Shown here: positions 3,413 to 31,117 of the stretch, piece by piece | Layout of the letters: every line of letters begins with the position of its first letter | Numbering within the stretch: position 1 is the first letter of the stretch | Source of the DNA: Sulfuritalea sp. | GTDB lineage: Bacteria; Pseudomonadota; Gammaproteobacteria; Burkholderiales; Rhodocyclaceae | Direction: 5' to 3' | NCBI GenBank assembly: GCA_016710465.1 | Contig: JADJVS010000001.1 | Span: 15,255 to 79,254, forward strand | Length of the DNA: 64,000 nucleotides | Notes under the pieces: generated by a model | Told to the model about the DNA's origin: nothing | Database searches by the model: none | Seen by the model: the letters and a program-made list of their open reading frames with translations, nothing else | Position numbers and translations under genes: made by a program

Positions 3413-3463
3413 GGCCGGAACCGCGTGGAGCTTGTGCAAGGGGTCATTGCACAAGTGCGGGCA

Positions 3464-5125
3464 TCAAAGCTCATAGCCCAGCCCAGACAGGTTCTTGCGG
3501 ATTTCGGCCTCCAGCCGGGCGCTGTCGGCGAACTGGTCGCGCAGCGTGGCGGTGAGCCGGGCCATCTTGTCTTCGAAGGCTTCGCCGTCCGCCACTTGCG
3601 CGGCGGCGCCGACGTAGCGGCCGGGGGTGAGGACGTAGTCGCTCTTGCGGATGTCGATGAGTTCGGCGGCCTTGCAGAAGCCGGGGATGTCTTGATATGC
3701 CACTGGATTCCCGCTTTCGCGGGAATGACGTGCGGACTTCCAGGCGTGGAAGGTATCGGCAACTTTGGCGATGTCCTCGGGTTTGAAGTCGCGCAGGACG
3801 CGGTCTTTCATGTAGCCGAGATTGCGGGCGTCGATGAACAGGGTTTCGCCACGGCGAGCGCGCACTCCATTGCGTTCGGCCTTGCTGCGGGTTAGGAACC
3901 AGATGCAGGCGGGTATCTGGGTATTGGTGAAAAGCTGACCCGGCAGGGCGACCATGCATTCGACCAGGTCGGCTTCGATCAGGGCCTTGCGGATTTCGCC
4001 TTCGTTGTTGGTATTGCTGCTCATCGAGCCATTGGCCAACAGCAGCGCCATGCTGCCGTGGGGCGCCAGGTGGTGGATCATGTGCTGCATCCAGGCGAAG
4101 TTGGCGTTATTGGGCGGCGGTACGCCGTACTTCCAGCGCACGTCGTCGTCCTTCACGCCTTCATTCCATTCCTTCATGTTGAAGGGCGGATTGGCCATGA
4201 TGAAGTCGGCGCGCAAATCCGGGTGCTGGGGCTTGTTGTAGGTGCTGGCCGGCTCCTTGCCGAAGTCGAAGTCCATGCCGCGGATGGCCATGTTCATCGA
4301 GGCCAGGCGCCAGGTGGTAGGGTTGGCTTCCTGGCCGTAGATGGAAAGCTGGCCGATGCGCCCACCGTGCTCCAGCACGAAGCGCTCGCTCTGCACGAAG
4401 AATCCGCCGGAGCCGCAGCAGGGGTCGTACACGCGACCTTGAAAGGGTTCAAGCATTTCGACGATCAGGCCGACGATGCTCTTGGGCGTGTAGAACTCGC
4501 CGCCGCGCTTGCCGGCGGCAATGGAAAACTCGCCGAGGAAGTATTCGTAGACGTGGCCGAGGATGTCCTTGGCGTGCAGGCTTTCGTGCTTGAAGGGCAC
4601 GGTGGCCAGCAGGTCGATCAGGCCGGGCAGCGCCGCGTCGATGCGCCAGCGGGCATAGCTCTTGTCGAGCACGTTCTTGAGCCTGGGGTTTTCCTTCTCG
4701 ACGGCTTCGAGGGCGTCGTCGAGCAGGCGGCCGATGCCGGTGAATTTGTATTCGAAGGTCTTGCCATTCCTGACTTCGAGCTTCGTGCCGATGGCGACCT
4801 TGGCGCTGGCCTTGAGGAAATCCCAGCGGGCCAGGGACGGCACCCAGAACACGTTCTTCTCGGTGTAGTAGTCGCGGGCTTCGAGTTCCTGCTCGATCAG
4901 CTCGGCGCCGTCTTCGCCGAGGTAGTAATCGTTGGCTGGATCGACGAAGGCGGCATTCAGTTCTTCGCGGCGTTCCTTGAAGGCGTCGGAGACGTACTTG
5001 AGGAAGACCAGGCCGAGGACGACGTGCATGTAGTCGCTCGGGTTGAGGTTGGCCCGCAGCTTGTCGGCGGCGGTCCACAGGCGCTTGTCGAGGTCGTTGA
5101 GGAATTGCTGTTCTTCGCTGTTCAT
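3464..5125 (-). CDS. hsdM: Type I restriction-modification DNA methyltransferase HsdM
   Basis: HsdM N-domain 'LWTAADKLRANL', AdoMet motif 'VYDPCCGSGGF', catalytic 'ANPPFNMKEW'. Confidence 0.92.
   Translation of the reverse strand: MNSEEQQFLNDLDKRLWTAADKLRANLNPSDYMHVVLGLVFLKYVSDAFKERREELNAAFVDPANDYYLGEDGAELIEQELEARDYYTEKNVFWVPSLARWDFLKASAKVAIGTKLEVRNGKTFEYKFTGIGRLLDDALEAVEKENPRLKNVLDKSYARWRIDAALPGLIDLLATVPFKHESLHAKDILGHVYEYFLGEFSIAAGKRGGEFYTPKSIVGLIVEMLEPFQGRVYDPCCGSGGFFVQSERFVLEHGGRIGQLSIYGQEANPTTWRLASMNMAIRGMDFDFGKEPASTYNKPQHPDLRADFIMANPPFNMKEWNEGVKDDDVRWKYGVPPPNNANFAWMQHMIHHLAPHGSMALLLANGSMSSNTNNEGEIRKALIEADLVECMVALPGQLFTNTQIPACIWFLTRSKAERNGVRARRGETLFIDARNLGYMKDRVLRDFKPEDIAKVADTFHAWKSARHSRESGNPVAYQDIPGFCKAAELIDIRKSDYVLTPGRYVGAAAQVADGEAFEDKMARLTATLRDQFADSARLEAEIRKNLSGLGYEL
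3707..3726. repeat. REP-like perfect palindrome inside hsdM (ATTCCCGC-TTTC-GCGGGAAT)
   Basis: 8-bp arms with a 4-nt loop. Translates as '...HSRESGNP...' in the hsdM frame and 'IPAFAGMT' on the other strand. Confidence 0.6.
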
Positions 5126-8782: not shown

Positions 8783-9037
8783 GGCGCTTGGGTGGAGAGG
8801 GATGCCGCATTCTGACCGAAACCGGCGCCCCCCGCCCGCCCGGCGCATATACAACCGACCGGTCGCGATTGACAGGCCGGGGCAAATCCCGATTCAGCCG
8901 GAAATTGCCCGGATGCCGGCCACTGGAAGGCGTTTCACCTTCCGTGCGGACGAGCTATCGGCGGGCTCATGCTAAGATGCCCTACGCCCATGCCGAGGGC
9001 AGACCGGCGGGCCGGGCAGGCCTGGAGAACGCGGAAA

Positions 9038-9667
9038 ATGGCCAGGACACGATCCCAGGATTACGATTCCATCAAGCAGGCCATCCTGCAGGCCGCGGCC
9101 AAGCTGTTCGCCGACAAGAGCTTCGAGGCCACCTCGATCAACGAGATCGCCGAGGCGGCGGGCCTCTCCAAGGCCGGCATCTACCACTACTTCGAATCCA
9201 AGACCGAGATCCTGCGCGTGATGCTCACCGAGCACCTCGAGTCGGTGACCGAGATCGTGGACACGGCGCTGAACACCTCGGATGCCCCGCGCGACAAGTT
9301 CCTGACCCTGACACGCCTCCTGATCGAGAACTACACGCAGCCGAGTTCGCGCAACCAGCACAGCGTGCTGGTCAATGACATCGGCGCCCTTTCGCCCAAG
9401 GACCGCGAGTTCATCGTCGCCACCGAGCGCCGCATCATTCGCGCCACCGAGCGCCTGCTGCAAAGCCTGTTTCCGCAACTGAACAAGCACCCGGACGTGC
9501 TGCAGCCGATCACCATGCTGTATTTCGGCATGATCAACTGGACCGATACCTGGTTCTCCGATAAGGGGCGCCTCAGCCCGCCGCAACTGGCGACGCTGGC
9601 CGCCGAACTGATCCTCAACGGCATCGCCCATACCGACTACGCGACGCTTCGCCAGGCCTCGAAGTAG
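9038..9667 (+). CDS. TetR/AcrR family transcriptional regulator
   Basis: HTH 'FEATSINEIAEAAGLSKAGIYHYFESK'. Confidence 0.85.
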   Translation: MARTRSQDYDSIKQAILQAAAKLFADKSFEATSINEIAEAAGLSKAGIYHYFESKTEILRVMLTEHLESVTEIVDTALNTSDAPRDKFLTLTRLLIENYTQPSSRNQHSVLVNDIGALSPKDREFIVATERRIIRATERLLQSLFPQLNKHPDVLQPITMLYFGMINWTDTWFSDKGRLSPPQLATLAAELILNGIAHTDYATLRQASK

Positions 9668-9784: not shown

Positions 9785-9813
9785 TTGACCGCTCGGTCGG
9801 CCTATGTTAGCGT
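9785..9813 (+). promoter_or_regulatory. Putative promoter with embedded palindromic operator (upstream of the ligase)
   Basis: TTGACC - 17 nt - TAGCGT. Palindrome GACCGCTCGGTC spans 9787-9798. 26 of 31 nt match the element at 12334-12364. Confidence 0.5.
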
Positions 9814-9881
9814 GCCCGCATTGCCATCCGGGAGGCCGCCTCCCGGCAAATACACCACCGTTGCGCAATGGAGGAGACGAG

Positions 9882-11219
9882 ATGGGAACTATCACATTCG
9901 AGCATCCCGAGATCGAAAGCCTGGACCGCGACGGCATCGTGGCGATCCAGCGGGCCAAGCTGAAGAAGCTGGCCGAGCGCCTGCAGGGCTCGCCGGACTG
10001 GACCAAGCGCTTCAAGGCCGCCGGCATGGAGCCGCGCGACCTCGGCGATTTCGACAATCTGCATGCCATGCCGACGCTGGAAAAGTCCGACCTGCGCGCG
10101 CTCTATCCCTACCCTATGCTGACGGTGGACATTTCGCAGGTGCGCCGCTTCGTCGCCACCTCGGGTACCACCGGCCTGCCGGTGATGTTCGGCCTCACCG
10201 AGCGCGACCTCAACCACCTGCTTCCGTTCCAGATGTCGCGCCTGCTGCGCGCCGCCGGCATCCTGCCCGGCGACAAGGTGTACCAGGGCTACGGCTACGG
10301 CCTGTGGATCGGCGGCCTGGCCATGGACATCGGGCTTGCCGCCTACGGCGCTGTGAATTTCCCGATCGGCCCGGGGCGCAGCGACCTGATGCTGAAATGG
10401 CTGGGGGACCACGAATTCACCGCCTGTTCGTTGTCGCCTTTGTGGCTGATGACCCTGATTAACCAGGCCAAGGCGCAGGGCATCGATCCGCGCACGGCCT
10501 GGAAGCTGCGCGTGGGCGTGTTCGGCGGGCAGTCCATTTCGGCCGCCTTCCGCGACCAGCTCGAAGCCGAGATGCCGCCGGGATTCCGTGCGCAGAACAT
10601 CTACGGCACCACCGAGGCCGGCGGGCCCATCGTCAGCATTTCCTGCCCCTATTCGCACGACACGGACGAGATGCACCTGATCAATGAGGACACCCTCATC
10701 ACCGAGATCGTCGATCCGATGACGCTGCGCCCGGTGGGCCCCGGCGAGGTCGGCGAAGTGGTGATCACCTCGCTCGACCGCGAGGGCAGCCCGGTGGTGC
10801 GCTGGCGTACCCGCGACCTGGTCAGGCTTTCGGACAAACCCTACGACTGCCCCTGCGGCCGCCACGGCATGCCCAAGATCGGCCGCATCATCGGCCGCAG
10901 CGACGACATGCTGAAGATTCGCGGCGTGATGGTCTTCCCCAGCCAGGTCGAGGACATCATCGCCGACACCGAGGGCACGGTGAAGGAGGCTTGGCACATC
11001 TACATCGACAGCGACCCGATGCTGATGGAGGAAATCACCGTCGCCGTCGAGAAGGCCGGGGCCAGCGGCCGCGCCGCGCAGGACATCGAGCACGACCTCG
11101 GCCACGCCATCCATTCCCGCCTCGGCGTGCGCGTCAAGGTGGAATGCCTGGCCGAAGGCTCGCTGCCGCGCTACGAAGCCAAGGCGGTGCGCGTGCACCG
11201 TCGCGACAAGAAGGACTGA
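9882..11219 (+). CDS. PaaK-like (phenylacetate-CoA ligase / F390 synthetase family) acyl-CoA ligase
   Basis: 'VATSGTTGLPVMF' AMP motif, 'YGTTEAGGP', C-terminal 'KAVRVHRRD'. GGAGGAGA RBS precedes the ATG at 9882. Confidence 0.8.
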   Translation: MGTITFEHPEIESLDRDGIVAIQRAKLKKLAERLQGSPDWTKRFKAAGMEPRDLGDFDNLHAMPTLEKSDLRALYPYPMLTVDISQVRRFVATSGTTGLPVMFGLTERDLNHLLPFQMSRLLRAAGILPGDKVYQGYGYGLWIGGLAMDIGLAAYGAVNFPIGPGRSDLMLKWLGDHEFTACSLSPLWLMTLINQAKAQGIDPRTAWKLRVGVFGGQSISAAFRDQLEAEMPPGFRAQNIYGTTEAGGPIVSISCPYSHDTDEMHLINEDTLITEIVDPMTLRPVGPGEVGEVVITSLDREGSPVVRWRTRDLVRLSDKPYDCPCGRHGMPKIGRIIGRSDDMLKIRGVMVFPSQVEDIIADTEGTVKEAWHIYIDSDPMLMEEITVAVEKAGASGRAAQDIEHDLGHAIHSRLGVRVKVECLAEGSLPRYEAKAVRVHRRDKKD

Positions 11220-11250
11220 ACCCGGGAGTCGGCGCTGGCGGGACGGCGAT

Positions 11251-12210
11251 TCAGGTCCCGACGCGCTCCAGCATCTTCTCCGCCAGCGCGTAGGGATCGG
11301 TTTCGCGCGCGATCACCGGGTCGAGCAGCTCGTCCAGCCACTGGCCGTCCTCGGCGCGCATGCGGCGGTCGAGCAGGTCGCGCAGGATTTCGCCGACGCG
11401 AAAGCGCATGCGCGTGCGGACGCGCGTGCGGGCGGCATCGGAACCGTCGGCGTGGTCGGCAAAACAGCGGTCGATGTGCGCGGCAAGGTCGGCCACGCCA
11501 TCCCCGGTCGTTGCCTGGGTCTTCACCACCGGCGGGCGCCATCCGCGCTCGCTGTGCAGCCGCTGGCCGAGCGCGATCATCTCGGCGAGGGCCTGCACCG
11601 TGCGATCGGCCTCCTTGTGGTCGGCCTTGTTCACCACGAAGATGTCGCCGATCTCGTTGATGCCGGCCTTGGCGGCCTGCACGTCATCACCGCCCATGGG
11701 CGTTTGCAGCAGCACCACGACGGCGGCATGGCGCATGATGTCGGTCTCGTTCTGGCCGACGCCGACGGTCTCGATCAGCACCACGTCCCAGGGCATGGCG
11801 TCGAGCACGGTGAGCGCATCGCCCGTGGCGCGCGAGAGGCCGCCGAGGTGGCCGCGCGAGGCCATGCTGCGGATGAAGACACCGGCGTCGCCGCTGTGGT
11901 CCATCATGCGCAGGCGGTCGCCGAGCACGGCGCCGCCCGAGAAGGGGCTGGACGGATCGACCGCCAGCACCGCCACCTTGAGGCCGGCCTGGCGCCAGTG
12001 GCGCACCATGGCGTTGATCAGCGTGCTCTTGCCGGCGCCCGGCGGGCCGGTGACGCCGACCACCTTGCTGCGCCCGCCCCGGCGGTAGAGCGCCTGCAGC
12101 AGCGGCACCACGCCGGGCTCATCGCGCTCGACGCGGGTGATCAGGCGCGCCGCGCTGCGGATATGGCCGGCAGCCACGGCGTCGAGCAAACTGCGATCGG
12201 CTTCCTCCAC
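11251..12210 (-). CDS. meaB: MeaB/ArgK-type G-protein chaperone for B12-dependent mutases
   Basis: Walker A 'GPPGAGKST', 'ETVGVGQ', 'NKAD'. Confidence 0.88.
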   Translation of the reverse strand: MEEADRSLLDAVAAGHIRSAARLITRVERDEPGVVPLLQALYRRGGRSKVVGVTGPPGAGKSTLINAMVRHWRQAGLKVAVLAVDPSSPFSGGAVLGDRLRMMDHSGDAGVFIRSMASRGHLGGLSRATGDALTVLDAMPWDVVLIETVGVGQNETDIMRHAAVVVLLQTPMGGDDVQAAKAGINEIGDIFVVNKADHKEADRTVQALAEMIALGQRLHSERGWRPPVVKTQATTGDGVADLAAHIDRCFADHADGSDAARTRVRTRMRFRVGEILRDLLDRRMRAEDGQWLDELLDPVIARETDPYALAEKMLERVGT

Positions 12211-12334
12211 GTCCTTCTCCTTGCAAGCTGGTTAATTCGTCCTTTGGGTCGAATAATAACATTGGTCAAACCTAGGCGCTTTTAGTTCGCTACACGCTTC
12301 TGCTAAACCAATCCAGTAGCCGCCGCGTTAAACG

Positions 12335-12363
12335 TTGACCGGTCGGTCGGTTTTTGTTAGGAT
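12335..12363 (+). promoter_or_regulatory. Putative promoter with embedded palindromic operator (upstream of the mutase)
   Basis: TTGACC - 17 nt - TAGGAT. Palindrome GACCGGTCGGTC spans 12337-12348. Near-duplicate of 9785-9813. Confidence 0.55.
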
Positions 12364-12411
12364 GGCATCCGCCTGCGGCCCCCAGCGCCGCCAGCATGCA
12401 CAGGAGACGCA

Positions 12412-14031
12412 ATGAAGCGCGAGACGGATTACGGTTACGCCATCAAGCCGGTCTACACGCCTGCCGACGTGGCAGGCCTGGACTACGAGAAGGACCTTGG
12501 CCACCCCGGCAGCTTTCCCTACACCCGCGGCTACCACGAGAGCGGCTACCGCACGCGGATGTGGACCCAGCGCATGACGGCGGGCCTCGGCAGTTCGAAG
12601 CAGGCCAACGGCGTGCTCAAGAAATATCGCGAGATGGGGCAGCGCGGTGGCATGTGCGTGATCAGCGACCGCGTTTTCTCGCACTGCATCGACCCCGACC
12701 ACCCGCTGGGACGCAAGGAAGCCGGCGTCCTCGGCTGGCCCGGCTGCTCGCTGCTGGAGTTCGAGGAGCTGATGGACGGCATCCCGCTCACCGGGCAGTC
12801 GATCACCCTGCTCGGCTCATCGGCGCCGACGGTGATGCGCCTGGCCTACGTGGTGGCGCTGGCCCACAAGCGCGGCATCGATCCCAGCGAAATCCATGGC
12901 AGCGTCATGGAGTCGCCCTTCGAGAACTACTTCGGCCAGACCGACGTCCAGCCCTTCGACCTCAACCTCAAGCTCTGGCTCGACGCCTCGGAATACGTGG
13001 TGCGCAACAAGATCCGCATGCGCTCCAGCGTCATCAGCCAGCACTTCCAGGAGTCCGGCGGCAACAACGCGCAAGCCGTTGCCGTGGTGCTGTCGATGTA
13101 CAAGGAGCTGTGCGGCAAGCTGGTGCGCGAGCGCGGCCTGGACTTCGACGATGCCGCGCTGGTGCCCTACGAGCTGGTCAGCATCGGCACCCGCTTTTTC
13201 GAAGAGATCGCCAAAGTACGCGCCCTGCGCCGCATGTGGGCGCGCATCGCCAGGGACGAGTTCAAGGCGAAGACCGAGAAGGCCTGCCAGATGCTGATCG
13301 CGGTGCACACCTCGGGCCGCACCATGACCTACCAGCAGCCGCTCAACAACATCGCCCGCTGCGCCATCCAGTCGCTGGCCGGCGCCATGGTCGGCTGCAC
13401 GGCCATGGACAACGCCACCATGGACAACGCCTACGCCGAGCCCTCCGCGCTGGCGGCGCGCATGTCGCTCAACACCCAGCACATCGTGGCCCACGAGACC
13501 GGCGTCGCCGACGTGGTCGACCCGCTGGCCGGCTCCTACTTCGTCGAGGCCCTGACCAACGAGGTCGAGCAGGAGGCGACGAAGATCCTGAACAAGATCG
13601 ACGAGCTCGGCGGCCTCATCGCGGCGATCGACAAGGGCTACATCCAGGAGATGCTGCGCGACGAAGCCAACAAGAAGTTCATCGAGATGGACAAGAAGGA
13701 TCGCCTGATCGTCGGCGTGAACCACCTCGAAATCCCGCCCGAGGAGGATTTCGAGATCCCGATCCAGAAGCTGCACCCCGGCGATTCGGAAGCCATCGCC
13801 GAGCGCATGGCAAAGTGGAAACCGACCCGCGACCAGGACCTGCTCAAGGCCAGGATCCAGCAGCTTTACACCGATGCGCAGAAAGGCGACCGCTTCAACC
13901 TGATGCCGTCCATCGTCGAGGCGGTGGAAGCCTATGCCACCTCGGGCGAGGTGATCGGCACCATCCGCAAGGCACGCGGCTTGAACTACGACCCGTTCAA
14001 CGTCATCGAGTGCCCGTTCGCGCTGCACTGA
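12412..14031 (+). CDS. Coenzyme B12-dependent acyl-CoA mutase, large (substrate-binding) subunit, atypical
   Basis: Methylmalonyl-CoA mutase family TIM-barrel signatures: 'FPYTRG', 'WTQRMTAG', 'ISQHFQESGG', 'NNIARCAIQSLAG', 'DPLAGSYFVEALT'. Confidence 0.85.
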   Translation: MKRETDYGYAIKPVYTPADVAGLDYEKDLGHPGSFPYTRGYHESGYRTRMWTQRMTAGLGSSKQANGVLKKYREMGQRGGMCVISDRVFSHCIDPDHPLGRKEAGVLGWPGCSLLEFEELMDGIPLTGQSITLLGSSAPTVMRLAYVVALAHKRGIDPSEIHGSVMESPFENYFGQTDVQPFDLNLKLWLDASEYVVRNKIRMRSSVISQHFQESGGNNAQAVAVVLSMYKELCGKLVRERGLDFDDAALVPYELVSIGTRFFEEIAKVRALRRMWARIARDEFKAKTEKACQMLIAVHTSGRTMTYQQPLNNIARCAIQSLAGAMVGCTAMDNATMDNAYAEPSALAARMSLNTQHIVAHETGVADVVDPLAGSYFVEALTNEVEQEATKILNKIDELGGLIAAIDKGYIQEMLRDEANKKFIEMDKKDRLIVGVNHLEIPPEEDFEIPIQKLHPGDSEAIAERMAKWKPTRDQDLLKARIQQLYTDAQKGDRFNLMPSIVEAVEAYATSGEVIGTIRKARGLNYDPFNVIECPFALH

Positions 14032-14042
14032 AGGAGAGAACC

Positions 14043-14504
14043 ATGCAAGCTGGAAACGGAATCAAGGTCATCGTCACGATGATCGGGCTCGACGGGCATA
14101 CCACGGGCGGCGAGGTGGTGGCCATGATCCTGCGCGACGCCGGCTTCGAGGTGGTCTACCTCGGCGTGAACCAGACGCCGCGGATGATCATCGATGCCGC
14201 AATCCAGGAGGACGTCGATGTGATCGGAATCAGCTCGCATGCCTCGAACTACGGGCAGATCGAGGAACTGGTCGACCTGGCCAGGGCCAACGGGCTCGAC
14301 GACATGCTGATCGTGGTCGGCGGCAACATCCCGCGCGAGCCGGCACAGCACCTGCTGGCCAAAGGGGTGCACAAGATATTCCTGCCGGGCAGCAGCGGCG
14401 CGACGATCGTCGAGTACCTGTCCACCGAGGCGCGCGGCGCCCGAAAGTCGGCGCCGGCGACACGGCGATCCGGCGCCGGGAATGCGGATCAGGGGCGGAT
14501 GTAG
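14043..14504 (+). CDS. B12-binding small subunit of acyl-CoA mutase
   Basis: 'GLDGHTTGG' (DxHxxG), 'DVDVIGISS', 'VVGG'. The last ~24 codons run through a repeat/hairpin and overlap the convergent gene. Confidence 0.85.
   Translation: MQAGNGIKVIVTMIGLDGHTTGGEVVAMILRDAGFEVVYLGVNQTPRMIIDAAIQEDVDVIGISSHASNYGQIEELVDLARANGLDDMLIVVGGNIPREPAQHLLAKGVHKIFLPGSSGATIVEYLSTEARGARKSAPATRRSGAGNADQGRM
14443..14478. repeat. Short dispersed repeat / hairpin, copy 1
   Basis: GAAAGTCGGCGCCGGCGACACGGC is identical to 54504-54527, and 22 nt are identical to 34776-34797. CGGCGCCGG...CCGGCGCCG forms a 9-bp stem. Confidence 0.7.
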
Positions 14505-14920
14505 GCCCAGCCTTCGCGCTGCTTCTGCATCAGCTCGACGACGCCGGCCTTGACGTAGCCGACCTTGTCGATCATGTCCTCGCGCTTGATCTTCTGGTTG
14601 CTCATGGTGTTCTCGCAGGCGACCACCTTGACACCCGCCGCCATGGCATCGAGGACGCGGTTGGCGACGGTGGCGTCGGCCTTGAGCATGCCGATGCCGG
14701 GGCCATAGGCGACGATCTCGATTTCGGCATTGGTGACGCCGAGATCGGTCTGCACGTTCCTGGCGTTATTGAGCGCCAGATTCCACTTGGCGGGATCGGC
14801 GTCGCTGACCTGGAAGATGACGCGGGCCTTGCCCGGAGCATCGGCGGCCAGCGCCGGCAAGGGCGCGGCGAGGGCAAGCACGGCGACGAAAAGGCTGGCG
14901 CAGGCGGTGTGGCGAATCAT
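14489..14920 (-). CDS. Secreted DsrE/DsrF-like family protein (COG1416-type)
   Basis: Signal peptide '[14 protein letters not shown]'; 'IEIVAYGPGIGML', 'VVACENTM', C-terminal 'GWAYIRP'. Confidence 0.7.
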   Translation of the reverse strand: MIRHTACASLFVAVLALAAPLPALAADAPGKARVIFQVSDADPAKWNLALNNARNVQTDLGVTNAEIEIVAYGPGIGMLKADATVANRVLDAMAAGVKVVACENTMSNQKIKREDMIDKVGYVKAGVVELMQKQREGWAYIRP

Positions 14921-14992: not shown

Positions 14993-15017
14993 TTGTGCGC
15001 CGCCGCATCGACTCCCG

Positions 15018-15043
15018 GGAATAAACTTGCCTCATCCCGCGTC
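15018..15043 (+). promoter_or_regulatory. ECF-type promoter candidate for the sigma/anti-sigma operon
   Basis: GGAATAAA - N14 - CGTC with spacing identical to the divergent copy. Only 12 nt separate it from the ATG, so the leader would be very short. Confidence 0.45.
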
Positions 15044-15055
15044 CTACGCCTGTCC

Positions 15056-15601
15056 ATGGCCATCCTGTCCTTCCTCTTCCATAGCCGCCAATGGCGCGAC
15101 AGCCTCGAAGCGGCGCGCCCGGCGCTCTATCGCGTCGCCTACGCCTGGTGCCGCGACGCGGCGCTGGCCGATGACCTGGTGCAGGAGGCGACGACCAAGG
15201 CCCTGGAACGCGGTGACCAGTTGCGTGACCCAACCCGCTTCAAGGGCTGGCTGTTCGCCATTCTTTCACGCTGCTGGCACGACCACCTGCGCGCCCGCCA
15301 CCCGCACGAGGACATCGACGAGCTCGCCGACGAGTACCTGGCCGGCGGCAGCACGCCGCCCGAGGAAGCCGAGCGCCGCCAGACCATCGCGCGCGTGCGT
15401 GCCGCCGTAGCGCGGCTGCCGGTGGGCCAGCGTCAGGTGCTCACCCTGGTCGACCTCGAAGAGTTCGGCTATGCCGAGGTCGGCGACATCCTCGCCATAC
15501 CCATGGGCACGGTAATGAGTCGCCTGCACCGCGCCCGCCGCGCCCTGCGCGAGGACCTGCTGCGCGTCGAGTCCGCCGCGCCGCTGTGGAGGGTGAAATG
15601 A
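15056..15601 (+). CDS. ECF (sigma-70 family) RNA polymerase sigma factor
   Basis: Region 2 'DDLVQEATTKALER', region 4 'LPVGQRQVLTLVDLEEFGYAEVGDILAIPMGTVMSRLHRAR'. Confidence 0.85.
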   Translation: MAILSFLFHSRQWRDSLEAARPALYRVAYAWCRDAALADDLVQEATTKALERGDQLRDPTRFKGWLFAILSRCWHDHLRARHPHEDIDELADEYLAGGSTPPEEAERRQTIARVRAAVARLPVGQRQVLTLVDLEEFGYAEVGDILAIPMGTVMSRLHRARRALREDLLRVESAAPLWRVK

Positions 15602-16275
15602 AGCACGAGATATCCGACGAGCAACTGAATGCCTTTGTCGATGACGAACTCGATGCCACAGACCGCAACCGGGTACTGAGGGCGATGGCCGTCGACGGGG
15701 ATCTGGCGCAACGCGCCTGCACCCTGCGCCTGGTCAAGGAACAGGTACGCCACGCCTACGCCGAGCCGTCGGCAGCGCCGTCGCGGCAACGACCGGCTCG
15801 CCCCTGGCGCGCGCTGGCCATGGCACTGATGCTGGCGGGGGCCGCCGTGGGCGGCTGGATCGCCCGCGACCAGGTCGGCACGGGAAGCGACATGCTCGCG
15901 CGCAAGGCTGACACGGGGCACGTAATCCTGCACCTGGCGGCCTGGGACGAGCGACGGGCGCGCATCGCCCTCGACGACGCCGAGGGGCTGCTGCGCACCG
16001 CGCGCGAGGCCGGGCAGCCGATCGACGTGGAACTGGTGGCCAATCGCGGCGGGCTTGACTTGCTGCGCACCGGGGTTTCACCCCATGCGGATCGCATCGC
16101 GCGGCTGCGCGCCGAGCATCCGAACTTCGCCTTGATCGCCTGCGGCCAGACCGTGGAACACCTGCGCGAAAAGGGCCTGGCGGTACACCTGCTGCCCGGC
16201 ACCCGCGTCGCCAGCTCGGCGCTGGAGCAGATCGTCACGCGCATGAGCCAGGGCTGGTCCTACGTACGCGTCTGA
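15598..16275 (+). CDS. Anti-sigma factor with single TM and periplasmic DsrE-like domain
   Basis: ATGA-coupled to the sigma gene. N-terminal 'LNAFVDDELD', TM 'LAMALMLAGAAVGGWIA'. C-terminal 'VELVANRGGLDLL...LIACGQTV...GWSYVRV' aligns with the neighbouring DsrE-like protein. Confidence 0.7.
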   Translation: MKHEISDEQLNAFVDDELDATDRNRVLRAMAVDGDLAQRACTLRLVKEQVRHAYAEPSAAPSRQRPARPWRALAMALMLAGAAVGGWIARDQVGTGSDMLARKADTGHVILHLAAWDERRARIALDDAEGLLRTAREAGQPIDVELVANRGGLDLLRTGVSPHADRIARLRAEHPNFALIACGQTVEHLREKGLAVHLLPGTRVASSALEQIVTRMSQGWSYVRV

Positions 16276-16319: not shown

Positions 16320-17636
16320 CTACAGCTTCAGTGCGATCAGTGCAATCGAGGGCACGAAGACGATCAGCGCAATGCGCACAATATCGGACATCAGAAAGGG
16401 AATGATGCCGATGAAGGTTTCCTTCATCGAGGTGTCCTTGGCCATGCTGCTGATGATGAAGACGTTAAGACCGACGGGCGGCGTAATCAGGCCGATTTCA
16501 ACCACCATCAGCGAAAGGATGCCAAACCAGATCGCCTTGCCCTCGGGATCGAGGCCCCAGAAGTCCATGCCCATGATGATGGGGAAGAAGATCGGAATCG
16601 TCAGCATGATCATCGACAGGCTGTCCATGATGCAGCCGAGGATCAGGTAGATGATGATGATCACCAGCAGTACCAGCAGGGGCGACAGGCCGAGCCCCAC
16701 CACCCACTTGGCGAGTTCCGCCGGCATCTGCGTCAGCGCCAGGAAGACGTTCATGATGTCGGCGCCGAGCAGGATCAGGAAGATCATGGCCGTGGCCTGT
16801 GAAGTGCCATAGACGCATTCGAGGAAGCCGCGCTTGGACAGGCCACCCGAGCGCCAGGCGACGAAGGCCGTCGCCAGGGTACCGATCGAGGCGGCCTCGG
16901 TCGGCGTGAAAAAGCCGCCATAGATGCCGCCGATCACGGCGATGAATATCAGCATCACCGGCCAGGTATCGGCGATCGCCTTCAGTTTTTCGGCGATGCT
17001 GGCCTTTTCGCCACGCGGCGCGGCATTGGGATCAAGGCGGGCGATGATGCCGATCACAATCATGTAACCGACCATGGCGATGATGCCGGGAATCACGGCG
17101 GCCATGAACAGCTTGGCGATGTTCTGTTCGGTGAGGATGGCGTAGATCACCAGTGGCACCGAAGGCGGGATCAGGATGCCCAGCGTGCCGCCGGCGGCGA
17201 TCGCCGCCGTGGCGAGGCGCCCGGAATACTTGTGGTTGCGCAACTCGGGCAGGGCCACCTGGCCCATGGTGGCGGCGGTCGCCAGCGAGGAGCCGCAGAT
17301 CGCGCCGAAGCCGGCGCAGGCACCGACCGCAGCCATCGCCAGACCGCCGCGCCAGTGGCCGATCAGCGTGGCGCCGGCACGGAACAGGGCCTTGGACAAG
17401 CCGCCATGGGTGGCGAACTGGCCCATCAACAGGAACAGCGGCACCACCGAGAGATCGTAGATCGAATAGCGCGCCCAGGCGGCTGTCTTCATGTAACTGA
17501 GCAGCGGTGCCGGGCCGGCCATCCAGATGTAGCCGACCATGCCGGCGATCATCATGGCCATCGCGATATGTACGCGCAAGGCCATCAGGCCCAGCATCAG
17601 GACGCCGGCGACGGCGCCGGTTTCAATTCCGGTCAT
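16320..17636 (-). CDS. dctM: TRAP transporter large permease (DctM family)
   Basis: 438-aa polytopic protein with typical DctM motifs; overlaps dctQ by 4 nt. Confidence 0.88.
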   Translation of the reverse strand: MTGIETGAVAGVLMLGLMALRVHIAMAMMIAGMVGYIWMAGPAPLLSYMKTAAWARYSIYDLSVVPLFLLMGQFATHGGLSKALFRAGATLIGHWRGGLAMAAVGACAGFGAICGSSLATAATMGQVALPELRNHKYSGRLATAAIAAGGTLGILIPPSVPLVIYAILTEQNIAKLFMAAVIPGIIAMVGYMIVIGIIARLDPNAAPRGEKASIAEKLKAIADTWPVMLIFIAVIGGIYGGFFTPTEAASIGTLATAFVAWRSGGLSKRGFLECVYGTSQATAMIFLILLGADIMNVFLALTQMPAELAKWVVGLGLSPLLVLLVIIIIYLILGCIMDSLSMIMLTIPIFFPIIMGMDFWGLDPEGKAIWFGILSLMVVEIGLITPPVGLNVFIISSMAKDTSMKETFIGIIPFLMSDIVRIALIVFVPSIALIALKL

Positions 17637-18157
17637 GCTTCGGCTCCGGTAATGTCGATCCAGGCTGTATAGAGGGCCGCGCAGCCAAGAAGGAAGAAGG
17701 ATGGCACCATCGGCAGGTAGCCGTACCAGGTGGGCAGGTTAAGCAGCATCGAGGCATCGCCACTGTCGCGCAGATCGAGCATGCCCAGGGTGATGCGCCA
17801 GGCGAAGACGAAGCCGGCGACGGACAAGGCCAGGCTGGCGACGATATCGCAGGCGCGATTGAATTTCTTCGGCGCGTGGACGGTGAAGAAGTCTACGATG
17901 ATGTGGCCGCGGATCATCTGGCAGAAAGGCAACGCCATGGTCACGGCAACCGCCGACATCATCTGCACCAACTCGTAGTCGCCGAGGATCGGCGTGCTGA
18001 ACAGGCTGCGGCCGACAATGCTCGTCAAGGACATCAGGGACATCAGGATCAGCGTGATACCCGAGCCGACCGCGAAGGCGCGACAAACCTTGTTCAGCAC
18101 CCGGCCCACCAATGCGGTCGGCTCGGCATCCTTGTCGACATAGAGGGCGTCAGCCAT
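17633..18157 (-). CDS. dctQ: TRAP transporter small permease (DctQ family)
   Basis: Four TM segments. Start taken at the internal ATG (MADALYVD). Confidence 0.75.
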   Translation of the reverse strand: MADALYVDKDAEPTALVGRVLNKVCRAFAVGSGITLILMSLMSLTSIVGRSLFSTPILGDYELVQMMSAVAVTMALPFCQMIRGHIIVDFFTVHAPKKFNRACDIVASLALSVAGFVFAWRITLGMLDLRDSGDASMLLNLPTWYGYLPMVPSFFLLGCAALYTAWIDITGAEA

Positions 18158-18200
18158 CTTTTTCTCCTTGCGTTCCGTCCGCGACGCAGGTCGGGGACGG

Positions 18201-18238
18201 CAAAAAAACGCCGGGGCCGGCAGTGCCGGCACCCGGCG
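18201..18238 (-). terminator. Intra-operon intrinsic terminator/attenuator between dctP and dctQ
   Basis: Minus strand reads CCGCCGGGTGCCGGCACTGCCGGCCCCGGCG followed by TTTTTTT. Confidence 0.6.
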
Positions 18239-18252
18239 GTGCGTCGTGCTGC

Positions 18253-19284
18253 TTACTTGGTGTGCTTCTTGATCAGGTCCTGAGCCGCCTTGAACAGCTT
18301 GGGACCGTCGTGGCCGGCCTTGGTCATGTTGGCCATCCACTCGTCATCGAGCGCTCCGCTGGCCTTCTTCCATTTTTCAAGTTCCGAAGCCGGGATAACG
18401 TTGATGGTCATGCCCGCAGCCTTGCTCTTCTCGCGGCCGGGGCCGTCGTCGGCTTCCTGCACACGCCCGGCCATGGCCGAGAACTCGATGCCGGAGTTGT
18501 TGTCGATCACTTTCTTCAGGTCAGCCGGCAGGGAGTCGTACTTGGCCTTGTTCATGGCGATGGTGAACACCGTGGTATAGAGCGCCGGGAACTTCGGGTC
18601 CGTTTCCGCACCGAACTTGGCGATTTCATTGACCTTGATGCTCGGCACCACCTGATAGGGAATCACCGCACCTTCGATGACGCCCTTGGACAGCGCCTCG
18701 GGCACGGCCGGCACCGGCATGCCGACCGGCGTGGCGCCCATCGAGGCCAGCATCTTGTTGGTCAGGCGGGTCGGGGCGCGGAACTTCATGCCCTTGAAGT
18801 CTTCCATGGTCTTCATCTGCTTCTTGGTGGTGAACAGGTAGCCAGGGCCATGAACGTGGACGGCGAGCACCTTGACGTCCTTGAATTCGTGCGCGGCGTA
18901 CTGCTGGGTGAATTCCCAGGCGGCGCGGCTGGTGGCTTCCGCCTTGGTCATGGTGAAGGGCAGCTCGAAGACTTCCGACATCGGGAAGCGGTTGGCCGAG
19001 TAGCCGAGCACGGTCCACACCACGTCGGCGACGCCATCCTTGGCCTGGTCGTAGAGCTGCGGCGGCGTGCCACCGAGCTGCATGGCCGGATAGATCTGGC
19101 ACTTGATGCGGTTGTTGGAATCCTTGCCCAGCTTGGCACACCACGGCTCGAAGACGCCGGTATGGATGAAGGTCTGGGCCGAAAGGAAGTGATGCACCTT
19201 GAGGGTGACCTCCTGAGCCTGAACCGCGAAGGCGGTGCCGGCGATCGATGCGGCAATCAGGGTTTTTGCAAACAGCTTTTTCAT
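18253..19284 (-). CDS. dctP: TRAP transporter periplasmic solute-binding protein (DctP family)
   Basis: Signal peptide 'AASIAGTAFAVQAQE'; DctP-family body. Confidence 0.88.
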   Translation of the reverse strand: MKKLFAKTLIAASIAGTAFAVQAQEVTLKVHHFLSAQTFIHTGVFEPWCAKLGKDSNNRIKCQIYPAMQLGGTPPQLYDQAKDGVADVVWTVLGYSANRFPMSEVFELPFTMTKAEATSRAAWEFTQQYAAHEFKDVKVLAVHVHGPGYLFTTKKQMKTMEDFKGMKFRAPTRLTNKMLASMGATPVGMPVPAVPEALSKGVIEGAVIPYQVVPSIKVNEIAKFGAETDPKFPALYTTVFTIAMNKAKYDSLPADLKKVIDNNSGIEFSAMAGRVQEADDGPGREKSKAAGMTINVIPASELEKWKKASGALDDEWMANMTKAGHDGPKLFKAAQDLIKKHTK

Positions 19285-19505: not shown

Positions 19506-20825
19506 CTATTTCGGCCGCCGGTCGATCACCCGACGGGCCTTGCCGACGAGCGTCCGCTCGACCTTGTCGGTCTCGACTACATGCACCGTCGACGACACCC
19601 CGACCAGCACCTTGATCCGGTGCTCGACCTCACCTCCGATCTCCTTGCGCTGCTGTTCGGTGATCCTGTCCGACAGATCGGCGCGCACTTCGACATAGAC
19701 GTCGAGTTTGTCCAGATGGCCATCGCGGGTGACCTGCAGTTGGTACTGGGCGCATAGCTTCGGATGCTTGAGCAGGATCTCCTCGATCTGCGTCGGAAAC
19801 ACGTTCACGCCGCGGATGATCAGCATGTCGTCGCTGCGCCCGGTGATCTTTTCCATCCGCCGCATGGTGCGCGCCGTGCCGGGCAGCAGGCGCGTCAGGT
19901 CGCGGGTGCGGTAGCGGATGATGGGCAGCGCTTCCTTGGACAGCGAGGTGAACACCAGTTCGCCCATTTCGCCGTCGTCCAGCACCTTGCCGGTTTCGGG
20001 GTGGATGATTTCGGGGTAGAAATGGTCCTCCCAGATGGTTGGGCCGTCCTTGGTTTCGGCGCACTCGCAGGCCACGCCCGGGCCCATGACTTCGGAAAGG
20101 CCGTAGATATCCACAGCGTCGATGTTGAGGCGTTCCTCGATCTCGCGGCGCATTTCGTTGGTCCAGGGCTCGGCGCCAAAGAGGCCGACACGCAGGCTGG
20201 TTTCGCGCGGATTGATGCCGAGCTTGATCATTTCGTCGGCGATGGTCAGCACATACGACGGCGTGCAGCAGATCATGGTCGGCTTGAAGTCCTGGATCAA
20301 CTGAATCTGCTTTTCGGTCTGGCCGCCGGACATCGGGATCACCGTCGCCCCCAGGGCTTCGCCGCCGTAATGGGCGCCGAGGCCGCCGGTGAACAGGCCG
20401 TAACCGTAGGAATTGAGGATCATGTCATCGGCGCTGCCGCCGGCGGCACGCATCGAGCGCGCCATCAACTGGGCCCACATCGCGATGTCGTTCTTCGTGT
20501 AGCCGACCACCGTCGGCTTGCCCGTGGTGCCCGACGAGGCGTGGATGCGCACCACGTCGCGCATTGGCGCCGCAAACATGCCAAAGGGATAAGTATCACG
20601 CAGGTCGGCCTTGGTGGTGAAGGGAAACTTCGCCAGGTCCGAGATCTGTTTCAGGTCATCCGGGTGCACCCCGGCGGCGTCGTATTTCTTGCGGTAATGC
20701 GGCACGTTGTCGTAAGCGTGCCTGATCGACCACTTCATGCGTTCGAGTTGCACCGACCGCAGCTCGTCCTTGCTCGCCTTCTCGATGGCTTCCAGGCCCT
20801 TGCCCGGCGAATTCTTTGCGCTCAC
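19506..20825 (-). CDS. paaK: Phenylacetate-CoA ligase
   Basis: 'IHASSGTTGKPTVVGYT', 'YGLSEVMGPGV', 'RSDDMLIIRGVNVFP'. Context is the pad-like operon. Confidence 0.88.
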   Translation of the reverse strand: MSAKNSPGKGLEAIEKASKDELRSVQLERMKWSIRHAYDNVPHYRKKYDAAGVHPDDLKQISDLAKFPFTTKADLRDTYPFGMFAAPMRDVVRIHASSGTTGKPTVVGYTKNDIAMWAQLMARSMRAAGGSADDMILNSYGYGLFTGGLGAHYGGEALGATVIPMSGGQTEKQIQLIQDFKPTMICCTPSYVLTIADEMIKLGINPRETSLRVGLFGAEPWTNEMRREIEERLNIDAVDIYGLSEVMGPGVACECAETKDGPTIWEDHFYPEIIHPETGKVLDDGEMGELVFTSLSKEALPIIRYRTRDLTRLLPGTARTMRRMEKITGRSDDMLIIRGVNVFPTQIEEILLKHPKLCAQYQLQVTRDGHLDKLDVYVEVRADLSDRITEQQRKEIGGEVEHRIKVLVGVSSTVHVVETDKVERTLVGKARRVIDRRPK

Positions 20826-20842
20826 CCCTGCTCCCCCCTTGC

Positions 20843-22183: not shown

Positions 22184-22185
22184 GT

Positions 22186-23457: not shown

Positions 23458-23459
23458 GC

Positions 23460-24722: not shown

Positions 24723-24884
24723 GCGGCCTCCGGAATTGAAGAGTCGGCGCTGGGGGACGGCGATTTGTCATCATGCCGCTGCCTCCGACATCTCGTGGGT
24801 AGTGTTCGTCGGCGCGTCGGCAGCGTGCAGCAATCGCGGACGCTACGCCCCCGCTCGCTTCGCTCACGGGTCCCCCTCCGCTGC

Positions 24885-25753: not shown

Positions 25754-25814
25754 CGCCTCTCCTCCTGTCGACGGAACCTGTCGGTTCCGTCTCGTATGGT
25801 GCTAAAGCCTGCGC

Positions 25815-30138: not shown

Positions 30139-30155
30139 GTTCGTCACCAATTTCC

Positions 30156-31001: not shown

Positions 31002-31117
31002 CCGCTTTTCGTTACGATACAGAACGGTGATTCTAAAAGCAAGCGTTTTGTATCATATTAGAAGCGCCTAATGCGGCATACTGTATACATTCGCCCCGAA
31101 CAAGGCGCTCGCCTACA

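Follow-up and report, generated by a model that had tools for sequence, protein, structure and literature searches.

The window analysed here, 64 kb of DNA from a Sulfuritalea-like betaproteobacterium, encodes a B12-dependent acyl-CoA mutase whose large subunit, as judged from its sequence, belongs to an isolated branch of this enzyme family that is widespread but has received no study, and the gene cassette to which it belongs probably rearranges a branched organic acid that has so far been assigned to no enzyme. To our knowledge, B12-dependent acyl-CoA mutases are the only route for the bacterial degradation of acids with tertiary or quaternary carbons, and such enzymes are of interest for the production or breakdown of branched chemicals.

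Organization of the cassette

On balance, the genes listed in Table 1 appear to form a self-contained 'activate and isomerise' cassette, consisting of a repressor-controlled ligase, a two-subunit B12 mutase and a GTPase chaperone. The initial annotation had read a module of ligase, meaB and two mutase subunits from the DNA, and all four open reading frames lie where it placed them, encode intact proteins and have the corresponding domain matches. In profile searches, MeaB scores above the cut-off of TIGR00750 (320.7 versus 240.75 bits), with its P-loop (GPPGAGKST) and NKAD motif visible in the translation, and the large subunit lies above the cut-offs of both PF01642 (415.5 versus 22.1 bits) and TIGR00641 (349 versus 303.8 bits). 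The small subunit matches PF02310 (78.8 bits) and TIGR00640 (103.5 bits), and its translation bears the DxHxxG His-on motif (D17-G-H19-T-T-G22). With a substrate domain, a B12 domain and a MeaB partner, the cassette belongs to the AdoCbl-dependent acyl-CoA mutase superfamily. Flanking genes in the window encode a DsrE-like protein, an ECF sigma/anti-sigma pair, a TRAP transporter and pad-like functions, and a second ligase in the window (19506–20825) carries the canonical PaaK motifs.

Table 1. Genes and putative regulatory sites of the cassette (positions within the 64-kb window).
Feature	Position	Strand	Matches or pattern
TetR-family regulator, presumed cassette repressor	8969..9667	+	PF00440, PF17932
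PaaK-family acid-CoA ligase of 445 aa, distinct from true phenylacetate ligases	9882..11219	+	TIGR02155, PF00501, PF14535
MeaB-type G-protein chaperone for the mutase	11251..12210	-	TIGR00750 321 bits, PF03308 295 bits
Acyl-CoA mutase large (substrate-binding) subunit, 539 aa	12412..14031	+	PF01642 415 bits
B12-binding small subunit, 153 aa	14043..14504	+	PF02310 79 bits, TIGR00640 103 bits
Ligase promoter/operator box TTGACCGCTCGGTCGGCCTATGTTAG; palindrome GACCGctCGGTC overlaps the -35 hexamer	9785..9810	+	26-nt pattern
Mutase-gene promoter/operator box; palindrome GACCGgtCGGTC overlaps the -35 hexamer	12335..12363	+	TTGACC-17-TAGGAT, extended -10 TG
Operator-like palindrome upstream of the TetR gene	8853..8864	.	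1 mismatch to GACCGnnCGGTC
Operator-like palindrome immediately past the TetR stop codon	9667..9678	.	1 mismatch

The 26-nt box occurs exactly twice in the 64 kb, upstream of the ligase and of the mutase, against an expectation of 0, and it is also found in other genera: among the related loci, the ligase-upstream copy recurs in L001, L002, L004–L007, L010, L014 and L016, and the copy upstream of the large-subunit gene (mutL) is kept in L001–L003, L010, L011 and L014. We infer that the presumed TetR repressor would bind the palindrome GACCGnnCGGTC, a site that overlaps the -35 elements in both of the near-identical promoters. One-mismatch matches to the palindrome, a weak signal alone, number 8 in the window versus 6 expected, and four of the eight sit in the intergenic DNA of the cassette. 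The promoter also bears on the ligase start: since the ATG at 9804 falls within the box at 9785–9810 and GGAGGAG precedes 9882, the latter is the correct start.

Across 81 unique related loci, mutS adjoins mutL in 78 and some acid-CoA ligase is adjacent in 59 (38 of PaaK type, counted when within 9 kb of the mutase, 14 of FadD type and seven of a 650-aa AMP-binding type), while MeaB is adjacent to the mutase in 45 and a TetR gene adjoins it in at least 35. Genes that recur nearby encode transporters, ligases, a CoA-transferase, an MmgE/PrpD protein and enoyl-CoA hydratases, dehydrogenases and thiolases of generic type. In most of the loci the cassette stands by itself, and conserved downstream catabolic genes were not found beside it.

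We consider it very likely, from the predicted functions of the parts, that the cassette works by a general activate-and-isomerise mechanism. On induction, the PaaK-family ligase would use ATP to convert a free monocarboxylic acid into its CoA thioester, MeaB would load and protect adenosylcobalamin, and the split mutase, composed of the large subunit and the His-on B12-binding small subunit, would move the thioester carbon in a radical 1,2-shift. A branched acyl-CoA that is refractory to beta-oxidation would in this way become an ordinary isomer to be consumed by housekeeping pathways, which would account for the lack of conserved pathway-specific downstream enzymes beside the cassette.

An isolated branch of the mutase family

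The large subunit is only 30–34% identical to human MCM, HcmA and Xanthobacter Xaut_5043. Its orthologues (66–95% identity) span the Proteobacteria, Desulfobacterota and Firmicutes, the next relative is 44% identical, and all members of the clade bear generic names only ('methylmalonyl-CoA mutase family'). In a neighbour-joining tree of 134 representatives, the mutase falls outside every clade that holds a reference included in the analysis; Xaut_5043, 66th of 133 by distance from it, lies in a separate clade. Many of the hosts are anaerobic aromatic degraders (Syntrophorhabdus, Desulfomonilaceae, Desulfatiglandales), and the cassette is also carried by the cultured strains Magnetospirillum sp. 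15-1 and Paramagnetospirillum magnetotacticum MS-1.

With MCM (human 2XIJ; Propionibacterium 1REQ) the cassette mutase has in common the PF01642 + PF02310 fold family, His244 and the partnership with MeaB, but at 30% identity it has Tyr89, Arg207 and Tyr243 replaced and its subunits are split, not fused. Methylmalonyl-CoA mutase was rejected as an identification, since the NF006944 equivalog model gives 278 bits against a cut-off of 876 and only the His of the four pocket residues is kept.

The substrate pocket

The motifs WTQRMTAGL, YFGQTDV and SQHFQESGG, all present in the translation of the large subunit, were mapped by HMMER alignments to HcmA (4R3U) and human MCM (2XIJ) and by a MAFFT L-INS-i alignment of 134 mutases. 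Thr56 corresponds to MCM-Tyr89, Gln176 to Arg207 (HCM-Gln208), Gln210 to Tyr243 and His211 to His244, while Ile84 stands at the position of HCM-Asp117. In the HMMER alignment to human MCM, a one-residue gap places Gly175 rather than Gln176 opposite Arg207; whichever placement is taken, the segment ENYFGQTDVQP has no Arg or Lys, so that on alignment the carboxylate-binding arginine is absent from the pocket. T56, I84, Q176, Q210 and H211 are invariant across 20 diverse orthologues (73–88% identity), which indicates that they are traits of the family and not errors.

The Thr/Gln/Gln-His pattern, read by eye in the initial annotation, is thus confirmed by both kinds of alignment, and neither they nor the tree gave a canonical Tyr/Arg or Phe/Gln pair or a grouping with an included reference. 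It differs from Tyr/Arg/Tyr-His in MCM and from Phe or Ile/Gln/Tyr-His in the ICM/HCM-like representatives, and with Leu/Asn/Gln-His in Xaut_5043 it has only Gln-His in common. The further claim that the pocket matches no characterised specificity therefore stands, at the level of aligned residues, for MCM, the ICM/HCM-like enzymes and Xaut_5043, the comparison being one that leaves IaaG, RcmA and Ecm outside. As aligned, the changes Tyr89 to Thr, Tyr243 to Gln and HCM-Asp117 to Ile make the predicted pocket hydrophobic and enlarged, and the replacement of the carboxylate-binding Arg by Gln suggests a substrate without a free carboxylate. An uncharged branched acyl-CoA is accordingly a likely substrate.

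The ligase

The ligase scores 278 bits with the PaaK equivalog model TIGR02155, below the cut-off of 646, and is 35% identical to PaaK2 (2Y4O), 28% to HCL and 29% to Xaut_5040. It has Trp at the PaaK Phe position, lacks the PaaK motifs GLGAHYG and AEPWT, and has motifs of its own, YGYGLWIGGLAMDIG and FGGQSISA, which are mostly kept in 21 orthologues (57–93% identity); where they vary, it is chiefly in the distal portion of YGYGLWIGGLAMDIG. A true phenylacetate-CoA ligase was rejected on the grounds that these motifs replace FGYGLFTGGLGIHYG and FGAEPWT of PaaK2 and that the score is below the cut-off.

A PaaK-like ligase need not indicate an aromatic acid. HCM and the Xanthobacter mutase act on small aliphatic acids. 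The 2-HIBA ligase HCL is a member of the PaaK clade with Tyr164 and Ser239 as its pocket residues (PMC8388817), its gene travels with hcmAB/meaH (PMC7176365), and the Xanthobacter mutase cluster likewise holds a PaaK-like ligase, Xaut_5040. As HCL and Xaut_5040 are of PaaK type, such ligases are the usual partners of mutases for small tertiary aliphatic acids, and the earlier reading of an aryl-acid-type ligase as pointing to a bulky or aromatic substrate is not supported on that ground.

Candidate substrates

A specificity outside those for methylmalonyl-, ethylmalonyl-, isobutyryl-, 2-hydroxyisobutyryl-, pivalyl- and arylsuccinyl/alkylsuccinyl-CoA is quite conceivable, if somewhat short of an even chance; it could be for an uncharged acyl-CoA bearing an aryl or cycloalkyl group, for example 2-arylpropionyl-CoA.

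The leading specific candidate, put forward tentatively, is an acyl-CoA with a neo- or tert-alkyl group, of the pivalyl/isovaleryl type. The Xanthobacter autotrophicus Py2 plasmid cluster Xaut_5040–5045 has the same parts list as the cassette (TetR, small and large subunit, MeaB, PaaK-like ligase), adjoins an AMP-ligase/ABC transporter, as does the cassette in Magnetospirillum sp. 15-1, and encodes a large subunit, Xaut_5043, that likewise has Gln-His at Tyr243-His244. We take Xaut_5043/5044 to be the authentic PCM, the pivalyl-CoA/isovaleryl-CoA mutase. The F598A variant of IcmF reportedly gains pivalyl-CoA mutase activity; this substitution puts a small residue at the Tyr89 position while Gln is retained, which parallels the Thr/Gln of the cassette mutase. 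The known pivalate degraders are said to be members of the Rhodocyclales and Burkholderiales. However, the mutase shares only 34% identity with Xaut_5043, falls apart from it in the tree, and has Thr/Gln where Xaut_5043 has Leu/Asn at Tyr89/Arg207; gene order differs between the two clusters, their ligases are 29% identical, and no thioesterase gene lies in the Sulfuritalea window. The ligase is nearer true PaaK (35%) than Xaut_5040 or HCL (28–29%), leucine or isovalerate genes were not seen alongside the cassette, anaerobic aromatic degraders are numerous among the hosts, and in several genomes the binding proteins encoded in the operon or next to it are similar to binders of aromatic acids.

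These last observations belong to the main rival, in our view a rather doubtful one, in which the mutase converts an aryl-substituted, uncharged acyl-CoA, for example 2-phenylpropionyl-CoA to 3-phenylpropionyl-CoA, or atrolactyl- or tropoyl-CoA to an isomer open to beta-oxidation. In this scheme the ligase would act on the matching aryl-alkanoic acid, and the product would enter the benzoyl-CoA pathway. An aromatic substrate is kept alive by the in-operon binding proteins of other genomes, which are most similar to aromatic-acid binders. For the TRAP binding proteins by the deltaproteobacterial copies, the nearest structures are 4N6D, 4PGN and 4NAP, of which we take the last two to be indole-acid binders, and in L010 and L015 an orphan binding protein that lies between the ligase and mutL has the aromatic-binder set 3SG0/CouP as its best matches (127–138 bits). 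Indole acids are among the listed TRAP ligands (PMC5812351). In L004-type loci, the ABC binding protein by the cassette matches PDB 3SG0 with 360 bits and CouP (4JB0), a protein that binds ferulate and coumarate (PMC3610893), with 300 bits. The TRAP binding protein of the window itself shares 53% identity with 5IM2 and 44–48% with TarP and with binding proteins described as 'aromatic acid specific'; in the window the cassette borders on a phenylacetate (pad-like) island; the replacement of two bulky tyrosines by Thr and Gln, the nearness of the ligase to PaaK and the frequency of anaerobic aromatic degraders among the hosts also fit. Yet orthologues of the window's TRAP protein sit in mutase-free phenylacetate/benzoyl-CoA and hydroxybenzoate clusters, and its role in Sulfuritalea is probably tied to the pad genes next to it. 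The in-operon proteins are only distant relatives of aromatic binders, and the types vary by lineage, that of Magnetospirillum being uninformative. The ligase departs from PaaK in the residue and motifs described above, small aliphatic acids are also served by PaaK-type ligases (PMC8388817; Xanthobacter cluster), and no aryl-specific beta-oxidation genes are conserved nearby.

An isobutyryl-CoA-type variant, taking isobutyryl-CoA to butyryl-CoA or 2-methylbutyryl-CoA to valeryl-CoA and serving the butyrate/isobutyrate isomerisation of anaerobic communities, is improbable. The Gln at the Arg207 position is ICM-like, the clade occurs broadly in syntrophs and sulfate reducers, and downstream genes would be unnecessary, but Thr stands for the typical ICM Phe and Gln for Tyr243, and matches to the IcmF model NF045497 (104 bits; cut-off 1500) and to PDB IcmF (97 bits) are weak. 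A small residue at the Phe position reportedly abolishes ICM activity in IcmF. With IcmF (4XC6) the cassette mutase has in common the Gln and a predicted uncharged substrate, but it is without the fused G-protein.

Still less probable is that the enzyme is a diverged HCM/RCM-like 2-hydroxyisobutyryl-CoA mutase served by a dedicated 2-HIBA ligase. Among PDB sequences HcmA matches best (258 bits), and Gln aligns with HCM-Gln208; of the HCM residues Ile90, Asp117 and Gln208, whose roles are reportedly defined and which we mapped on 4R3U, however, only the Gln is kept. The Aquincola tertiaricarbonis hcl-hcmA-hcmB-meaH set (4R3U, 6HDW) has the same four functions clustered, a split mutase and an adjacent regulator, which matches the cassette as a parts list of ligase, mutase, chaperone and regulator (PMC7176365). 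Against this, the large subunit is 32% identical to HcmA (RcmA lying outside the comparison), Thr takes the place of Ile90 and Ile that of the hydroxyl-binding Asp117, and Gln, not Tyr, precedes the catalytic His. In the ligase, HCL Tyr164/Ser239 are Trp/Gly (aligned positions that assume an 11-residue tag offset in chain 6HDW_A), and the regulator is TetR, not GntR.

The ligase IaaB is PaaK-like. An arylsuccinyl-/benzylmalonyl-CoA mutase of the indoleacetate pathway, the analogy drawn by the initial annotation, is nevertheless hardly credible: Aromatoleum aromaticum IaaGH (phenylsuccinyl/benzylmalonyl-CoA mutase), likened here by description and not by sequence, is a B12 mutase paired with a CoA ligase, IaaB, in a denitrifying member of the Rhodocyclales (PMC8360864), as is the present host, but its substrate has a free carboxylate, for which the cassette pocket has no Arg, no IaaL-type CoA-transferase, IaaF-type acyl-CoA dehydrogenase or other iaa functions were found within ~10 kb, and most of the 81 loci hold the cassette alone.

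Implications

As the cassette is small, self-contained and present in cultured strains, the question of its substrate is directly testable. Assigning a substrate to the clade would correct many annotations, and could add either a new reaction or, if the pivalyl-type reading is true, a second, independent lineage of pivalyl-CoA mutase doing the job that we ascribe to the Xanthobacter PCM. It could also account for the removal of a class of branched acids by bacteria of groundwater, sediment and wastewater. If instead the specificity is new, the cassette would be a widespread dedicated route by which anaerobic and facultative bacteria bring alpha-branched acids into beta-oxidation.

Gene content and regulation of the cassette

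The cassette is of a known kind, the ligase-mutase-chaperone cassette, and represents a distinct variant of it that is widespread but unannotated; its gene content, motifs, linkage and shared regulatory box are seen directly. The ORFs and domains of the module recognized in the initial annotation are present as described there, and the three motifs that it quoted all occur in the translation of the mutase large subunit, the stop codon of which lies 11 nt from the small-subunit ORF. The spurious long ORFs that overlap the real genes are typical of DNA with 65% G+C.

Positions of features within the window
Feature	Position	Strand	Remarks
Type I restriction-modification system	976-5125		HsdS 976-2292, HsdM 3464-5125; YhcG/DUF1016 PDDEXK nuclease gene between
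TetR gene	8969-9667		Directly upstream of ligase
Box copy before ligase	9785-9810
Spurious ORF	9807-11198	-
PaaK-family adenylate-forming ligase	9882-11219	+	ORF listed as 9804/9882-11219; TIGR02155 278 bits, far below the 646-bit cut-off
MeaB	11251-12210	-	319 aa; 321 bits, above cut-off
Spurious ORF	11360-12088	+
Box copy before mutase	12335-12360		To 12363 with full promoter
Spurious ORF	12354-14504	+	716 aa; small-subunit frame, open upstream through the large-subunit gene
Acyl-CoA mutase large subunit	12412-14031		539 aa; PF01642 415 bits; TIGR00641 349 bits, above cut-off
Spurious ORF	12817-14028	-
Query residues 299 and 331-335 (Gln330/'HTN' replacements)	about 13306 and 13402-13416
B12-binding subunit	14043-14504		153 aa; DxHxxG motif (D17..H19..G22) in translation
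DsrE/DsrF-like ORF	14489-14920	-	Convergent; 3' end overlaps 3' end of small-subunit gene by 16 nt
ECF sigma factor and putative anti-sigma gene	within 14993-16275		After DsrE-like ORF
TRAP transporter	16320-19284	-	Binding protein adjoins pad island
Pad-like anaerobic phenylacetate island	19506-34336		Assigned from its domains and by comparison with known pad clusters
Canonical PaaK ligase	19506-20825	-	Pad-like island
2-oxoacid:ferredoxin-oxidoreductase-like subunits, ferredoxin and pyridine-nucleotide-disulphide reductase domains	20843-24722		Pad-like island
DmsC-like anchor	25815-26969		Pad-like island
Molybdopterin oxidoreductase	27376-30189		937 aa; pad-like island
FdhD			Pad-like island
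PaaX regulator	31118-32131		Pad-like island
ADP-forming acyl-CoA synthetase	32246-34336		Pad-like island
Acetolactate-synthase-like ThDP enzyme	39689-41473
NeuB-type sialic/nonulosonic acid synthase	41509-42543
LuxE-like acyl-protein ligase	44946-46058

The ligase and mutase genes are each preceded by a copy of the box TTGACCG[C/G]TCGGTCGGnnTnTGTTAG, which occurs exactly twice in the window, with zero occurrences expected by chance. The box contains a -35/-10 pair (TTGACC-17-TAGGAT, with an extended -10 TG) and a palindrome, GACCGnnCGGTC, that overlaps the -35 hexamer; weaker copies of the palindrome are found on both sides of the TetR gene. As the ATG at 9804 falls inside the promoter and GGAGGAG precedes 9882, the ligase start is at 9882. 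Among related loci carrying the mutase in other genomes, ten from several genera (L001, L002, L004-L007, L010, L011, L014 and L016) have a TTGACCGnnCGGTCGG..TGTTAG box 5' of the ligase gene, the mutase gene or both. That the box is shared by the two promoters and kept across genera is good evidence for co-regulation. It is a candidate TetR operator that would define a small regulon, with TetR as the presumed binder.

The module ligase shares 35% identity with PaaK2, 34% with the second ligase of the window, and 28-29% with HCL and Xaut_5040. At the positions of HCL Tyr164 and Ser239 it carries Trp and Gly, where PaaK has Phe and Gly. The motifs YGYGLWIGGLAMDIG and FGGQSISA are largely kept in 21 orthologues (57-93% identity) and diverge in three remoter ligases (39-41%), while the second ligase of the window, beside the pad genes, has canonical PaaK motifs. 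Judged by its sequence, the module ligase is its own kind within the PaaK family. The aromatic substrate that had been read from the ligase type is not supported as argued, since HCL and Xaut_5040 are PaaK-type too. HCL, a 2-hydroxyisobutyrate ligase, falls in the PaaK clade (PMC8388817), and its gene shares an operon with hcmAB/rcmAB and meaH (PMC7176365). With PaaK-type ligases in both the HCL and the Xanthobacter cassettes, such a ligase is expected in any cassette of this sort, and is no pointer to aromatics.

An isolated mutase clade with a non-canonical pocket

Among 5.8 billion proteins searched by word index, more than 120 clusters match the mutase at 73-95% identity, and every one is named generically, for instance as 'methylmalonyl-CoA mutase family protein'. 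When 1.84 billion representatives at 50% identity were searched exhaustively with HMMER, a single full-length representative (69%) stood for the whole family; the relatives that follow it are at 44%, 40%, and then 39% or less. BLASTP identities of the large subunit are 32% with HcmA, 34% with Xaut_5043 and 30% with human MCM; the match to IcmF reaches only 97 bits. In a neighbour-joining tree with HcmA, Xaut_5043 and human MCM as its only named anchors, the query, the 69% representative and the 44% sister fall into a group that comprises about 20-30 unnamed representatives. This group includes none of the anchors, which by distance rank 66th, 77th and 110th of 133. Literature searches on pivalyl-CoA mutase, on pivalate with Thauera and on new acyl-CoA mutases found nothing on this clade.

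Pocket residues were mapped using HMMER alignments to HcmA (PDB 4R3U, 258 bits) and human MCM (2XIJ, 226 bits) and a MAFFT L-INS-i alignment of 134 mutases. In these alignments Thr56 of the query takes the position of MCM-Tyr89, Gln176 that of Arg207 (HCM-Gln208), Gln210 that of Tyr243 and His211 that of His244; Ile84 corresponds to HCM-Asp117, as counted along the 4R3U chain with its 11-residue tag offset. In the human MCM alignment a one-residue gap is shifted, placing Gly175 opposite Arg207 instead. As this segment of the query contains no basic residue, the carboxylate-binding arginine is missing whichever gap placement is chosen. All five residues (T56, I84, Q176, Q210 and H211) are unchanged in 20 of 20 orthologues sharing 73-88% identity with the query. 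The alignments and this invariance bear out the residues originally read by eye, and the proposal that the pocket corresponds to no characterised specificity survives comparison with HcmA, human MCM, Xaut_5043 and IcmF. An odd pocket alone is not rare in the superfamily, since non-canonical residues occur in the pocket of many other unnamed representatives as well.

The query and some 20-30 unnamed representatives align with His (or Arg/Lys) at MCM-Gln330 and with 'D-x-x' at 'HTN', positions that we take to be near the adenosyl group in MCM. These replacements suggest a deep, unstudied subdivision of the mutase superfamily.

Conservation and distribution

Neighbours of the large-subunit gene were counted at 81 unique loci. 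The small subunit lies beside it in 78, MeaB in 45 and TetR in at least 35. A PaaK-type ligase (sharing at least 35% identity with that of the window) is adjacent in 38 loci, a FadD-type ligase in 14, and a 650-aa AMP-binding protein inside an ABC transporter operon in seven. No conserved downstream catabolic genes are found across the 81 loci, only transporters, alternative ligases and generic beta-oxidation genes; the other recurring neighbours are an MmgE/PrpD protein and a family III CoA-transferase. An MmgE/PrpD-family protein and a FadD-type ligase occur together in 13 loci, deltaproteobacterial and other (L023, L036, L038, L039, L043, L044 and L048 among them). Here the FadD-type ligase replaces the PaaK-type one, a TRAP transporter and often an enoyl-CoA hydratase are present, and the PrpD-like protein adjoins a mutase whose substrate is apparently uncharged.

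TypA of the window is 95-97% identical to that of Sulfuritalea genomes and about 80% to that of Thauera. Mutase orthologues (66-95%) are found in Rhodocyclales, Burkholderiales, Rhodospirillales, Xanthobacteraceae, Desulfomonilaceae, Syntrophorhabdus, Syntrophus, Desulfatiglandales, Anaeromyxobacter and Desulfosporosinus. All 78 genome-collection matches to the mutase are MAGs, although cultured carriers exist, namely Paramagnetospirillum magnetotacticum MS-1 (a cluster member) and Magnetospirillum sp. 15-1 (77% orthologue), and the same collection does yield isolates for TypA. Thus, an isolate's absence from these matches does not equate to absence of the gene.

Genomic surroundings

Upstream, the cassette is flanked by the restriction-modification system, LrgB and a quinone-oxidoreductase-like gene, and downstream, in order, by the DsrE-like gene, the ECF sigma/anti-sigma pair, the TRAP transporter and the pad-like island. 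The restriction-modification stretch, with a G+C content of 0.57 versus about 0.65, may be a horizontally acquired island that ends just before the cassette neighbourhood. Only the closest relatives, L001 and L002, retain the DsrE-like gene, so it is probably outside the cassette. The phenylacetate island presumably matches known pad clusters. Further downstream, gene content suggests a surface-polysaccharide or nonulosonic-acid biosynthesis cluster (39689-47253), unrelated to the mutase cassette.

With 53% identity to 5IM2 and 44-48% to TarP and to binding proteins described as 'aromatic acid specific', the TRAP binding protein is clearly an aromatic-acid binder by similarity; its AlphaFold model reaches a pLDDT of 92 when alignment-based versus 33 from the single sequence. 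As its orthologues (77% and 67%) belong to phenylacetate/benzoyl-CoA and hydroxybenzoate clusters that have no mutase, it is not counted as evidence on the mutase substrate. Most likely, the transporter works for the neighbouring pad genes rather than for the mutase.

Candidate substrates

Our leading, still tentative, candidate is a substrate of the pivalyl/isovaleryl type. On pXAUT01 of Xanthobacter autotrophicus Py2, genes for TetR (Xaut_5045), small subunit (5044), large subunit (5043), MeaB (5042), a thioesterase (5041) and a 'putative phenylacetate-CoA ligase' (5040) are followed by an AMP-ligase/ABC transporter. We take Xaut_5043/5044 to be the native pivalyl-CoA mutase reported by Kitanishi et al. 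2015. The parallel in gene content, and the Gln-His at Tyr243-His244 common to the query and Xaut_5043, are clues to a small neo- or tert-alkyl acid. The Thr/Gln pair of the query is another, as it resembles the IcmF F598A variant, which reportedly gains pivalyl-CoA mutase activity. The lack of conserved downstream genes fits a product like isovaleryl-CoA, handled by the leucine pathway. Identity with the Xanthobacter mutase itself is ruled out by sequence (34%).

An aryl-substituted acid is a somewhat less probable substrate. Smaller residues replace two pocket tyrosines, and loci of the L004 type have beside the cassette an ABC binding protein matching 3SG0 (360 bits) and CouP (4JB0, 300 bits), the latter a binder of ferulate and coumarate (PMC3610893). 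An orphan binding protein between ligase and mutase in L010 and L015 matches the same set of binders at 127-138 bits, and TRAP binding proteins beside the deltaproteobacterial copies are nearest to 4N6D, 4PGN and 4NAP. The Magnetospirillum-type binding protein is uninformative on the substrate.

An ICM-like substrate is unlikely and an HCM-like one slightly more so; identity with MCM, ICM or HCM is ruled out by the pocket residue pattern and by model score. Least probable is an iaa-like substrate: that pathway requires IaaL and IaaF among other functions, and its mutase acts on a dicarboxylate half-thioester (PMC8360864). The flanking genes on both sides rule out an iaa cluster, and the indoleacetate analogy drawn in the initial annotation finds no support among neighbours that comprise restriction-modification, LrgB, DsrE-like, ECF sigma, TRAP and pad-like genes. 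The remaining probability falls to some other substrate.

Proposed role of the cassette

In the mechanism that we propose, TetR would repress the two operator-bearing promoters, the ligase would form an acyl-CoA and MeaB would assist cofactor loading. The split mutase would then rearrange an uncharged, branched acyl-CoA through a radical 1,2-shift, where we infer both the absence of a carboxylate and the direction of flux, and the product would enter general metabolism. The cassette would already be known if the pivalate-induced mutase of Thauera humireducens PIV-1 is an orthologue of the one described here.
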